Assembly: GCA_964408285.1 (NCBI GenBank)
Contig: CAYOYV010000015.1
Location: forward strand, 1-42,442
Source of the DNA: an uncultured Nitrososphaerota archaeon
GTDB taxonomy: Archaea > Thermoproteota > EX4484-205 > JAAOZO01
DNA length: 42,442 bases
Reading direction: 5' to 3'
Position numbers and translations under genes: made by a program. This document shows positions 323 to 36,284 of this stretch, piece after piece; within the stretch, counting starts at the first letter, position 1, and every line of letters begins with the position of its first letter. The notes under the pieces are model-generated. The model ran no database searches and was not told where the DNA came from. It saw only the letters and a list, made by a program, of their open reading frames with translations.

Positions 323-340
323 AAAGTGATCGTGGGGACC

Positions 341-3557
<3,217 letters not shown>

Positions 3558-3654
3558 GTCTCTGCGTTCACCTAGAGAGCGTCAGAATCTACCATGTTGG
3601 CACTTGTTCGCCTTCTTGATTAAGGATATATTTCACTTCAATCCAACTAATCTA

Positions 3655-3959
3655 CCCGGGATGAGTTGGTGGGCGGATGTCGGGCTCATGGGAGCCTGAG
3701 GAAACTTCCTTCTCTGCGCGGGTCTCGAGGCGTCGAAAGACGCAGGGGGAGACCCCTAGCAACGGGACAGAAATTCCCCCCTCCCACCGCGTGTGTATGA
3801 TGGGAACCCCCGGACAAAGGTGGCAAAGGGGTTGAAAATCTCGCCTCATGAAGAGCAAGGCCAAGTAAGCCAGATGATCGACCCGCTTGATGGCTAGGTA
3901 GGCCGCCTAGTCGAATTCCGCCTAAAACAGAAAAGGAGTTACGGCCAAGACATCCCGGG
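3655..3959 (+). ncRNA. rnpB: RNase P RNA
   Basis: P1 CCCGGGATG/CATCCCGGG; CR-I GAGGAAACTTCC and CR-V AACAGAAAAGGAGTTA form P4; ACAGAAA and TTGAAA S-domain motifs; TATA-like element near 3626. Confidence 0.95.
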
Positions 3960-3978
3960 AATCTAGGTCAAAACACGA

Positions 3979-4449
3979 ATGAAGTTGATGGCCCTACTTC
4001 TAGACAAGGATGATCCGAAGAAGTGTACGAGTAGAAAGCTTGCTAGGGCAGGGCTGGTATATGTAATTAGGAGCTCGTATCTGATACCAAGGAATTCGAT
4101 AGTGCTGAACCCAGAGGCGAAGGAAACGCTCTCCGAGAGGGACTTGGGATTGGCCGAAAAGCACGGCTTGGTAGTAATCGATACTTCGTGGAAGACTGGA
4201 ACTGAAATATTTTTGAAACTGAAGAGAGGTATCCACAGGAAGTTGCCAAGTCTGATCGCTGCAAACCCGACGAATTATGGTAAGCCATACGAATTATCTT
4301 CAGCAGAGGCACTTGCTGCTGGGCTATCGATATTCGGGATGAGGGATGAGGCGATTAGGATTCTCTCCGGATTCAAATGGGGAATGGAATTCCTGAGGCT
4401 GAACGAGTCACTGACGCGCACGGGCAAAAATGAACTCGTTTACCTTTGA
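3979..4449 (+). CDS. tsr3: 16S rRNA aminocarboxypropyltransferase Tsr3 (DUF367)
   Basis: DDPKKCT, DTSW, LPxLIAANPTNYGKP.ELSSAEA, FKWG motifs. Confidence 0.95.
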   Translation: MKLMALLLDKDDPKKCTSRKLARAGLVYVIRSSYLIPRNSIVLNPEAKETLSERDLGLAEKHGLVVIDTSWKTGTEIFLKLKRGIHRKLPSLIAANPTNYGKPYELSSAEALAAGLSIFGMRDEAIRILSGFKWGMEFLRLNESLTRTGKNELVYL

Positions 4450-12356: not shown

Positions 12357-12499
12357 TGGGCGCCGGCTTCCTGGGCTTCGCGTGACCTCGCGGATCGCAC
12401 TACAACCCAGAACGGAACTGCTTTTTACTTCCGTGTTCGGAATGGCTCCGCGGCGTTAGCCTGTACGGGTAGTTCCACAGTCCTATGGCCGGCCACCCA
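12357..12499 (-). rRNA. rrf: 5S rRNA with a 17-nt insertion/intron
   Basis: GGCCATAG...CCCGTAC[17 nt]CCATTCCGAACACGGAAGT; GCGAG loop; helix I TGGGTG.CCGGC/GCCGGCGCCCA. Confidence 0.95.
12446..12462 (-). other. Predicted 17-nt BHB-type intron in 5S rRNA
   Basis: CCGT-AC|A-GGC-TAAC-GCC-GCGG-AG|C; removal restores the canonical CCCGTACCCATTCCGAAC. The outer helix is relaxed. Confidence 0.82.
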
Positions 12500-12532
12500 A
12501 AATGTGTTCACAATTGGGCTATTAAGAATTTC

Positions 12533-26283: not shown

Positions 26284-26377
26284 TGGGCCGGGCCGGGCTC
26301 GAACCGGCGACCTTCTGCGTGTCAGGCAGATCTTAGAGGCAAGCTCCTCCTGTCCTAACCGCCTAGACGACCGGCCC
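26284..26377 (-). tRNA. tRNA-Val(GAC) with a 20-nt intron at 25/26 (26332-26351)
   Basis: GGGCCGG/CCGGCCC-A acceptor; TCTGC-CTGACAC-GCAGA anticodon arm; insert AGGAGGAGCTTGCCTCTAAG in a relaxed BHB (TAGG/TCTA). Confidence 0.9.
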
Positions 26378-29411: not shown

Positions 29412-29500
29412 TGGACCGGCAGGGATTCGAACCCCGGACCTCCCGCAATTTGGGCCTCTGGAACGCCAAGCGGGCTCTCTACCAACTGAGATACCGGCCC
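29412..29500 (-). tRNA. tRNA-Ala(GGC) with a 16-nt intron at 37/38 (29448-29463)
   Basis: GGGCCGG/CCGGTCC-A acceptor with G3-U70; CCCGC-TTGGCG|..|T-GCGGG; central helix TTGG/CCAA. Confidence 0.92.
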
Positions 29501-34832: not shown

Positions 34833-36284
34833 TCAACCCTTGACTACTCCAATCGGAACTAGACGCACCACTTTCCTTGCCAGTCCTACTTTGTCAGATA
34901 CATCAGCTACCGCATCAACCGACTTGTACGCATCTGGAGCCTCCTCAGCCACGACTCCCATGTCGGCCGCCATTAGGATTATGCCTCGCGTTTGAAGTTC
35001 GCTTTTCACCTCAGAGCCCCTATGCTTCCTAAGGGCTGCAGCTCTACTGAGAAACCTCCCAGCCCCGTGCGCCGTAGAGCCGAAACTCAGTTCCATAGAT
35101 GATTCGGTTCCTTTGAGGACCCAACTTGATGTTCCCATAGAGCCAGGTATGAGAACAGGCTGGCCACTTTCCCGGTATTTCTTAGGCACCATATCACTTC
35201 CGGGAGGGAATGCCCTCGTAGCGCCCTTCCTGTGAACCACGAGCTTCAATCTCTTCCCATCGACGGAATGCTCCTCAATCTTTGCAATATTGTGCGCGAC
35301 ATCGTACACGGGCCTCAAGCCCAGCTTATCCGGGCTTACTCCAAAGACCGAGCCGAAGGATTCCCTGACCCAATGAGTTATCATTTGCCTGTTCAAAAAT
35401 GCGTAATTGACCGCCGAAGCCATAGCTGCAAGGTAGTCTCGGGCCTCAGGTGTTCCGATCGGTACCGCCGCAAGTTCCCTATCCGGCAGAGAAATATGGT
35501 ATTTCTCAGATCCCCTCTCCATCGCTCTGAGGTAGTCACTGCAGACCTGATGCCCATATCCCCTGCTCCCAGTGTGAACGAAGACAACCGCTTGGCCGTG
35601 ATGCGTCAAGCCATAGGCTTCTGCAGTTTTCTGATCGAAGATGCTATCAACTACATCTATCTCCAAGAAATGGTTTCCGCTTCCCAGCGAACCCAGTTGC
35701 GGCTTGCCTCGGCTTCGGGCCCTCTCGCTGACCTTGCTGCTGTCAGCATCAGGCATTCTTCCGTTTTCCTCGATGTACTCCTTATCCTCATCCCAACCGT
35801 AGCCCCTCTTTATGGCCCAGTCTACTCCCTCCTCAACGGCTCTGTTCAATTCATCAACGGTGAGCCTAACTTTTCCCTCAGAGCCAAGACCTGACGGCAC
35901 ATTTGTGAAAAAAGCCTTCAGCAAATCCGTGAGCTTAGGTCTCAAGTCCTTTTCATCAAGGTTTGTGGTGAGCAGACGTACTCCACAGTTGATGTCGTAG
36001 CCAACGCCTCCCGGTGACACAACACCCCCATCATATGCGGTTCCAGCTACTCCGCCGATGGGGAAACCATACCCTTCATGCCCATCAGGGAGCGTGATGG
36101 AGTATCTTTGTATGCCAGGCAGGAACGAGACATTTGCCGCTTGCTCCAATGTCTTGTCCTCCTTCATTTTCTGCAGGAGATTCTCATCCGCGTATATTCT
36201 GGCGTTTACCCTCATGCCGCTCCTGTAAGTCCTCGGGATCTCCCAGATGTAATCACTCACTTTATTCAGATTACCTCTGAACAT
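34833..36284 (-). CDS. rtcB: tRNA-splicing ligase RtcB
   Basis: PDGHEGYGFPIGG, GYDINCGVR, GSLGSGNHFLE, HRKGAT, PGSMG, HGAGR, EEAPDAYK. Confidence 0.98.
   Translation of the reverse strand: MFRGNLNKVSDYIWEIPRTYRSGMRVNARIYADENLLQKMKEDKTLEQAANVSFLPGIQRYSITLPDGHEGYGFPIGGVAGTAYDGGVVSPGGVGYDINCGVRLLTTNLDEKDLRPKLTDLLKAFFTNVPSGLGSEGKVRLTVDELNRAVEEGVDWAIKRGYGWDEDKEYIEENGRMPDADSSKVSERARSRGKPQLGSLGSGNHFLEIDVVDSIFDQKTAEAYGLTHHGQAVVFVHTGSRGYGHQVCSDYLRAMERGSEKYHISLPDRELAAVPIGTPEARDYLAAMASAVNYAFLNRQMITHWVRESFGSVFGVSPDKLGLRPVYDVAHNIAKIEEHSVDGKRLKLVVHRKGATRAFPPGSDMVPKKYRESGQPVLIPGSMGTSSWVLKGTESSMELSFGSTAHGAGRFLSRAAALRKHRGSEVKSELQTRGIILMAADMGVVAEEAPDAYKSVDAVADVSDKVGLARKVVRLVPIGVVKG

Follow-up and report, generated by a model that had tools for sequence, protein, structure and literature searches.

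In archaea, introns bounded by the bulge-helix-bulge (BHB) motif are described from tRNAs, from 16S and 23S rRNA and from the pre-mRNA of cbf5 (as set out in the accounts of PMC4496867, PMC2738675 and PMC6125680). The motif consists of a 4-bp helix between two 3-nt bulges, as characterized in PMC7714728, and the splicing endonuclease EndA is reported to act on BHB motifs beyond tRNA, including those of rRNA precursors (PMC10515664, PMC7714728). For 5S rRNA, the archaeal part of the survey by Stepanov and Fox (2021) places expanded molecules only in Halobacteriales, at a site other than the one treated below, and the retained inserts that it describes are 13-109 nt long and without complementarity to the core (PMC7812874). 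Maturation of 5S in M. maripaludis is described as cleavage at an A/U-rich motif at both ends, and not by EndA (PMC10515664). Here, we analyze a stretch of 42,442 nucleotides (hereafter the window), contig CAYOYV010000015.1 of assembly GCA_964408285.1 from an uncultured Nitrososphaerota archaeon, whose 5S rRNA gene carries a 17-nt insert that is probably a BHB-type mini-intron. The preliminary description of this DNA, made from the letters alone, knew of no established 5S intron, and no paper describing one was found in the literature searched either, most subscription journals and supplements lying outside that search.

The 5S rRNA gene carries an insert with a BHB-type layout

The Rfam 5S model RF00001 matched the minus strand of the window at 12496-12358 with 55.4 bits and over all 120 model positions. 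The resulting gene measures 139 nt and, directly 3' of ...ACCCGUAC, contains 24 bases against 7 in the model, which locates an insert of 17 nt at 12446-12462, between model positions 34 and 35, on the 5' edge of loop C. Removal of the insert would leave two predicted exons of 34 and 88 nt and an RNA of 122 nt. Read on the minus strand and with ↓ marking the predicted cuts, the region runs through CCGU, AC↓A, GGC-UAAC-GCC, GCGG and AG↓C into CAUUCCGAAC..., and the sequence resuming 3' of the second mark is C CAUUCCGAACACGG... The position of the insert given in the preliminary description is confirmed by both the Rfam alignment and the minus-strand sequence, and the parts it had listed, a helix CCGU/GCGG, bulges ACA and AGC and a hairpin GGC-UAAC-GCC, are all present.

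From the topology of the BHB motif it follows that one strand of the central helix (H) is made of 5'-exon bases and the other of bases near the 3' end of the intron. The register tested was accordingly defined by 5'-exon positions -6 to -3 from the 5' cut, set against intron positions -6 to -3 from the 3' cut. As a control we used the tRNA-Ala(GGC) gene of the window (29412-29500), whose 16-nt intron, when placed at the standard 37/38 position, gives a helix UUGG/CCAA, bulges CG↓U and AU↓U, and cuts after the second base of each bulge. Transferred to the 5S insert, the tRNA register puts the cuts after 12463 and 12446 and joins ...CCGUAC to CCAUUCCGAAC..., with a central helix, CCGU/GCGG, that contains one G.U pair. 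The junction derived by this rule is identical to the uninterrupted 5S sequence of the insert-free relatives G001, G003 and G006b, in agreement with the earlier proposal that standard BHB cuts would regenerate the canonical 5S.

To be counted in the chance test, an insert had to form 4 bp with the exon in register and at least 3 flush inner pairs (the inner helix, h'). Shuffled versions of the 17-nt insert did so in 203 of 200,000 trials and uniform random inserts in 165 of 200,000, and the pass counts for shuffles of three inserts were 203, 227 and 221 of 200,000, about 1 in 1000. Because shuffled and random sequences pass at this low rate and the design recurs in many independent assemblies, the BHB layout of the 5S insert exceeds chance.

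Two other interpretations of parts of the insert were tried and rejected. A kink-turn (K-turn), a motif of tandem G.A pairs, does not account for the ACA bulge, as inspection finds Watson-Crick G-C pairs after the bulge and no tandem G.A. Pairing of the insert GGAG with helix II was discarded because the A/G polymorphism of the insert is not accompanied by covariation in helix II.

Upstream of the 5S genes of relatives, both insert-bearing and insert-free, a AAAAATTTAATAG-type element lies at the same distance as the TATA-like box of the window (Table 1). We infer from this that the 5S gene has its own promoter of the B recognition element (BRE)/TATA type.

Homologous inserts recur across the order and covary

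The order to which the archaeon belongs is represented in our collection by 26 genomes, 24 of them with a 5S match. An insert at the site described above (type 1) is present in 15 of the 24, namely the genome of the window (G000), G002, G004 and 12 species of genus g6, and a second kind (type 2), located 10 nt downstream, in 2 (G007 and G009). The remaining 7 have no insert (G001, G003, G005, G006, which has two 5S copies, G013, G019 and G023). Against the Rfam 5S model, insert-bearing genes score 46-66 bits and the insert-free genes of the order 69-101 bits.

A scan for the type-1 pattern over one genome per prokaryote species returned 15 loci, 14 of which belong to order genomes. Four of these 14 records are titled Candidatus Brockarchaeota, a group whose description contains in its main text 0 mentions of 'intron', '5S rRNA' or 'tRNA'; the other 10 are titled Thermoproteota, Nitrososphaerota, Thaumarchaeota or Crenarchaeota archaeon, or uncultured archaeon. 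The 15th locus is in G041, titled a complete Candidatus Bathyarchaeota chromosome, with a 155-nt 5S gene and a 33-nt insert at the same site, and its relatives G042 and G043 bear the same 33-nt insert; all three belong to another order.

We then compared the 19 distinct type-1 sequences, whose inserts measure 17-33 nt. CCGU, AC↓A and A(A/G)↓C are constant throughout, and in 19/19 the inner stem has at least 3 bp and is flush, its variants being GGC/GCC, AGC/GCU, GGA/UCC, GGG/CCC and longer forms. Three of the 4 pairs of H are invariant in 19/19 and the fourth is paired in 17/19. In alignment A1, 2 of the 3 h' pairs show compensatory changes and 98.5% of cells are paired, compared with 36-49% in slid registers, and the covariation score of 0.184 (0.055 in shuffles) was reached by 0 of 500 shuffles. 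A blastn-short search of the G000 genome with the insert and its flanks gave only chance matches of 10-11 nt, with no sign of a recent transposition from a tRNA intron.

A second site in loop C follows the same rule

Type-2 inserts, of 17-32 nt, split the A and C of the conserved CCGAAC at Rfam positions 44/45. Their layout runs ...UCCG, AA↓A, hairpin, CGG(G/U), NN↓C..., with H drawing on an exon tetramer other than that of type 1, and cuts derived by the rule restore CCGAAC. Among 401 genomes sampled from the phylum, the type-2 pattern was present in five, from four families (G007, G009, G052, G077 and G418), and the reversed-pattern control gave 0 matches. The helix is UCCG/CGGG in four of the five, with CGGU in the fifth. 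G007, G077 and G418 fit the type-2 register, the inner stem of G007 having only 2 bp.

Covariance-model scans covered 151 + 41 genomes, and both insert sites were searched by fixed patterns only. Oversized 5S genes are rare beyond these lineages: the covariance-model sample of the phylum included 134 non-order genomes with a 5S match, and none of them had an oversized gene. Separately, three relatives of G041 (G045, G051 and G056; L064-L066) have a 126-nt 5S that is lengthened near loop B by 5-6 bases (AAAUAG-like), and these genes were set apart from the inserts treated here, as they show no BHB layout.

Insert-bearing genes are single copies with a patchy distribution

The assembly of G000 comprises 46 contigs, with an estimated completeness of 93.7%, and contains one 5S gene above cut-off. 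A search for an intron-less second copy, suggested in the preliminary description, retrieved only a match of 17.9 bits on contig C9, which was rejected as chance since it lies inside a 379-aa open reading frame (ORF) and gave no hit to Rfam even at E up to 1. The 17 insert-bearing genomes of the order have one 5S match each, and in G041 the insert-bearing 5S is the only 5S gene.

In a maximum-likelihood tree of 23S rRNA, the type-1 pair (G000, G002) is sister to the insert-free genus g2, and the insert-free G013 is sister to the insert-bearing G015 (97/93), nested among the g6 carriers. A constraint that unites the g6 carriers in a single clade lowers the log-likelihood by 7.1 units (approximately unbiased (AU) test, p 0.04), support that is marginal and concerns a group named after the tree had been seen. 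On this tree at least three changes of insert state are required. The 5S of G015, once its insert is removed in silico, is colinear with that of G013 over 120 nt, and all 9 differences between them lie at positions 28-66, around the junction, including helix base 33 and bulge bases 34 and 36, which are invariant among carriers. This pattern fits either precise loss of the insert or replacement by an insert-free (foreign) allele; it also fits a constraint imposed by the insert on flanking exon bases and released after insert loss. All three insert-free g6 genomes (G013, G019 and G023; L018, L019 and L016) differ from the exons of G015 (L027) at 9-10 positions. Nearly all of these lie at 28-66, among them two compensatory helix III pairs, and the only other one is position 15 (in G019 and G023).

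The genome encodes the predicted splicing enzymes

Two ORFs of the EndA family are encoded in G000, with 194 aa (contig C4) and 217 aa (contig C8) and TIGR00324 scores of 108.3 and 77.4 bits, respectively. Its sequence, read against the catalytic motif, suggests that the 194-aa protein is the catalytic subunit. An (alpha-beta)2 EndA is described as accepting relaxed BHB motifs (PMC7714728), and the presence of two paralogs is consistent with a broad-specificity alpha2beta2 form, the (alpha-beta)2 enzyme of TACK (Thaum-, Aig-, Cren- and Korarchaeota) archaea. The window itself contains an RtcB RNA ligase gene (Table 1), whose product is expected to be the exon-joining enzyme, acting in trans.

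A 23S rRNA gene of the window is interrupted by a similarly built insert

The window includes the 3' end of 16S, the 23S gene, an RNase P RNA gene, two intron-bearing tRNA genes detected with Rfam and one 5S gene on the minus strand (Table 1). The 23S gene contains an insert of 186 nt that splits the conserved ...CUCUUA↓AGGUAGCC... and does not occur in any of the 11 other order 23S genes that were compared. Its layout comprises an H of CUCU/GGAG, bulges UA↓A and AA↓A and a flush 7-bp h' (CGGGACG/CGUUCCG). No outer helix was found at its 3' cut, as in the 5S insert. Judging by this layout and distribution, the 186-nt insert is probably an intron. In the type-2 carrier G009 (L093), 23S inserts of 384 nt and 30 nt obey the BHB rule exactly, the 30-nt one being placed in the conserved GGGA(A/C)AAGAA↓GUCC region. 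The BHB-type 23S inserts of G000 and G009 split the conserved core and each occurs in 1 of the 12 genes compared. These inserts suggest that the order has relaxed rRNA introns of the HBh' type, some of them very short. A further insert of G009, of 51 nt, fits only with a 4-nt bulge or with a product one base short and was left out as a control. The 23S of G010 contains an insert of 99 nt, whose letters read N.

The rule is not obeyed by an insert of ~751 nt in the 23S of G021 (L089, ~3571-4321) or at the homologous site in G013 (L092). This insert follows ...GACUCU and has G as its last base, and its start can pair with the end of the exon, a U.G pair then falling at the junction. It scores 22.2 bits (E 0.0029) with the Intron_gpI model, below the cut-off of 50, and contains a 177-aa ORF with a LAGLIDADG-like motif. 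It could represent a group I intron that encodes a homing endonuclease.

As for the other RNA genes, the order 23S-RNase P RNA is also found in five relatives (L041, L042, L054, L089 and L092), and the 5S gene is unlinked to them, ~8.8 kb away on the other strand. The second tRNA gene of the window, with anticodon loop CUGACAC, has 35 bases against 13 in the model in its D-arm region (Table 1), which indicates an intron at a non-canonical position. G000 as a whole gave 18 Rfam tRNA matches (17 over the cut-off), 11 of them longer than 80 nt, and the tRNA list of ARAGORN is similarly short and odd. Probably, many tRNA genes of this genome escape detection because they are split or contain several or unusual introns. 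Taken together, the few tRNA matches, the many longer than 80 nt and the D-arm insert therefore mark G000 as intron-rich.

Table 1. Coordinates of the 5S rRNA gene, its predicted parts and other features of the window.
Feature	Position	Strand	Basis or remark
5S rRNA gene	12358..12496	-	RF00001, 55.4 bits; sole above-cut-off match in G000
Predicted exon 1, 34 nt, ends ...CCGUAC	12463..12496	-	Sequence and Rfam alignment to model position 34
Predicted BHB-type mini-intron, 17 nt, type 1 site	12446..12462	-	Sequence, Rfam alignment, comparative alignment
Predicted exon 2, 88 nt, begins CCAUUCCGAAC	12358..12445	-	Sequence and Rfam alignment
Exon strand CCGU of central 4-bp helix H	12465..12468	-	Pairs with GCGG 12448-12451; in the mature fold, helix III 5' strand
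Bulge 1, AC↓A; predicted 5' cut after 12463	12462..12464	-	Invariant in 19/19 distinct type-1 sequences
Inner hairpin h', GGC-UAAC-GCC, flush with bulge 1 and H'	12452..12461	-	Stem of at least 3 bp, flush in 19/19
Intron strand GCGG (H') of central helix	12448..12451	-	GCGG in 17/19, GCGA in 2/19 distinct sequences
Bulge 2, AG↓C; predicted 3' cut after 12446	12445..12447	-	A(A/G)↓C in 19/19 sequences
ACGG, helix III 3' strand, rival of insert GCGG for CCGU	12431..12434	-	Rfam alignment, pair probabilities
TATA-like box (TTCTTAATAG), ~25 nt upstream of the 5S 5' end	12519..12528	-	Putative function
23S rRNA gene	339-3558	+	
186-nt insert in 23S, probable intron	2368-2553	+	Alignment of 12 order 23S genes
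RNase P RNA gene	3661-3953	+	175.3 bits; ~100 nt downstream of 23S
tRNA gene, anticodon loop CUGACAC	26284-26377	-	35 bases vs 13 in model, D-arm region
RtcB RNA ligase gene	34836..36143	-	PF01139, 560.7 bits; 494-aa open frame

Proposed splicing of the insert and its alternatives

We consider it quite probable that 12446-12462 is a relaxed BHB (HBh'-type) mini-intron of the 5S precursor and that it is spliced. The observations behind this proposal are the layout, its conservation and covariation, the second site, the genes for the enzymes and the presence of only one 5S gene; that the precursor is cleaved, that its exons are ligated and that ribosomal 5S lacks the insert is inferred. In the precursor, the exon bases CCGU would pair with GCGG of the insert and not with their mature partner ACGG, and this pairing would display two 3-nt bulges around a 4-bp helix, with the short inner hairpin behind. 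The splicing endonuclease, presumably made of the two EndA paralogs, would cut after the second base of each bulge, RtcB would ligate the exons, and CCGU would be released to form helix III of the canonical 122-nt 5S.

Several observations weigh against this proposal. The preliminary description had called the structure a BHB motif, and its helix, bulges, inner helix and cuts all stand, but the strict hBHBh' form does not: inspection of the sequence found no outer helix adjoining the 3' cut, where the minimum free energy fold has a multibranch junction, and the far side of the second bulge is not closed by a helix. Because no outer helix was found next to the 3' cut, the 5S insert is a relaxed form (HBh', or bulge-helix-loop-like). 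Partition-function folding of 17 type-1 and 4 type-2 genes showed no consistent preference between the BHB helix and helix III; over the type-1 genes the mean pair probability of H ranged from 0.02 to 0.76, and helix III was often favored in the precursor. H is only conserved and never covaries, with a C.A mismatch (GCGA) in G042 and G043, and among the type-2 inserts h' and H' are separated by an additional C in G009, and H contains a U.U in G052. A single EndA-domain match was obtained in G041 and likewise in G286, so the broad-specificity form is not evident in every carrier. The limited AU support for the nesting of G013 belongs here as well. Finally, metagenome contigs were searched with the 5' exon up to the cut site, a pattern that a spliced or an unspliced form would match, and the insert was present in 9 of 9 matching contigs, all of them multi-kb DNA.

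Among the alternatives, the one that survives best, although we judge it unlikely, is that the insert is a retained expansion segment, a hairpin on loop C at the solvent side of the central protuberance whose resemblance to a BHB is incidental or a relic. Examples of retained 5S inserts are known from Halococcus morrhuae at 104.1-105 and from bacteria at loop C 34-37, which the survey counts among the least obstructed sites (PMC7812874), and type 1 falls in this very region. The spliced form is not seen among the nine metagenome contigs, helix III is still favored in 10 of 17 predicted type-1 precursors, which leaves the insert as a loop-C hairpin, and stable GNRA-like loops (GAAA, GCAA, GGAA) cap many type-1 hairpins. 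The steric argument of the preliminary description, in which the contact of loop C with uL5 and uL18 makes removal of the insert necessary, is weak and fails, because the retained bacterial inserts sit at loop C positions that the survey ranks among the least obstructed (PMC7812874).

What speaks against retention is the relation of the insert to its exons. Retained inserts have, as the survey presents them, no noticeable complementarity to the core and leave conserved motifs uninterrupted with one exception (PMC7812874), whereas in type 1 a GCGG complementary to the core CCGU is kept in 17 of 19 sequences while the hairpin varies in length and sequence, and type 2, besides interrupting CCGAAC, has a tetramer complementary to the exon bases immediately before it, again with the spacing of a BHB. 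Retention would thus require two independent 1-in-1000 coincidences. The like-built 23S insert of the window, at a conserved core site that is uninterrupted in all the other 23S genes compared, argues in the same direction. The comparison of 5S genes from relatives, which the preliminary description had recommended, thus strengthens the structural claim through homologous, covarying inserts in the order and through the second site, and so does the 23S insert of the window.

A more ambitious form of the splicing proposal, which we hold to be rather doubtful, is that 5S introns are long-lived in this order and in some Bathyarchaeia-like lineages and are kept for a function, as a checkpoint of 5S folding. 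The intron would sequester the 5' strand of helix III (type 1) or bases of loop C (type 2) and hold the pre-5S in a non-native state, and splicing by EndA and RtcB would set the time at which 5S folds and, together with uL18 and uL5, enters the large subunit. The repeated landing of introns in loop C would then reflect the ability of its exon bases to provide one half of the central helix.

Excision without ligation, which would leave 5S in two pieces of 34 and 88 nt held together by helices I-III, appears very improbable. The BHB layout predicts cleavage and is silent on ligation, and fragmented rRNAs have a precedent in unligated bacterial intervening sequences, which are also mentioned in PMC7812874. 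However, RtcB, the standard partner of EndA, is encoded in the window, and after a cut in loop C the pieces would be joined only through the short helix III. That the gene is a silent or decaying copy, with an insert-free 5S missing from the assembly in use, is hardly credible: rRNA genes are often missed in assemblies as fragmented and incomplete as this one, but every insert-bearing genome of the order, and likewise G041, has a single 5S match, the exons are canonical, the promoter element is conserved and the insert covaries across the order.

Comparison with known systems

If the insert is spliced, as we favor, the substrate range of EndA and RtcB would gain a third ribosomal RNA, and BHB introns would extend down to 17 nt within an RNA of 120 nt. 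These would also be natural introns that borrow a strand of a mature helix for their recognition, which bears on their origin and persistence. In annotation, insert-bearing genes will pass for oversized 5S, or for expansion segments, wherever the motif goes unrecognized.

The insert shares with the retained segments of Thermoanaerobacterium and other bacteria, as the survey portrays them, an oversized 5S, a helical insert and the area of loop C 34-37, and its carriers, like the hosts of such segments, come from anaerobic and thermal habitats, hot springs being named in the titles of their records. It differs from them in the conserved complementarity to the adjacent exon at BHB spacing, seen in both insert types, in having a second site inside a conserved motif, and in occurring in lineages outside those that the survey reports.

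BHB-dependent processing is also exemplified by the permuted signal recognition particle (SRP) RNA of Thermoproteus. In that RNA and in the processing stems of 16S and 23S, the cuts release or circularize whole RNAs, whereas here the motif lies inside the body of 5S.

The closest counterparts are the archaeal BHB introns. Like them, the 5S insert has a 4-bp helix formed by the 5' exon and the 3' end of the intron, 3-nt bulges with the predicted cut after the second base, and an inner helix; it is likewise patchy among close relatives, and its host has two EndA paralogs and RtcB. Unlike them, its host RNA is 5S, its length is very small (17-33 nt), no outer helix was found at the 3' cut, and its splicing is so far a prediction from sequence. 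The exon half of H is, moreover, the 5' strand of helix III, so that this intron, unlike the known ones, would compete with the mature fold of the RNA that contains it.

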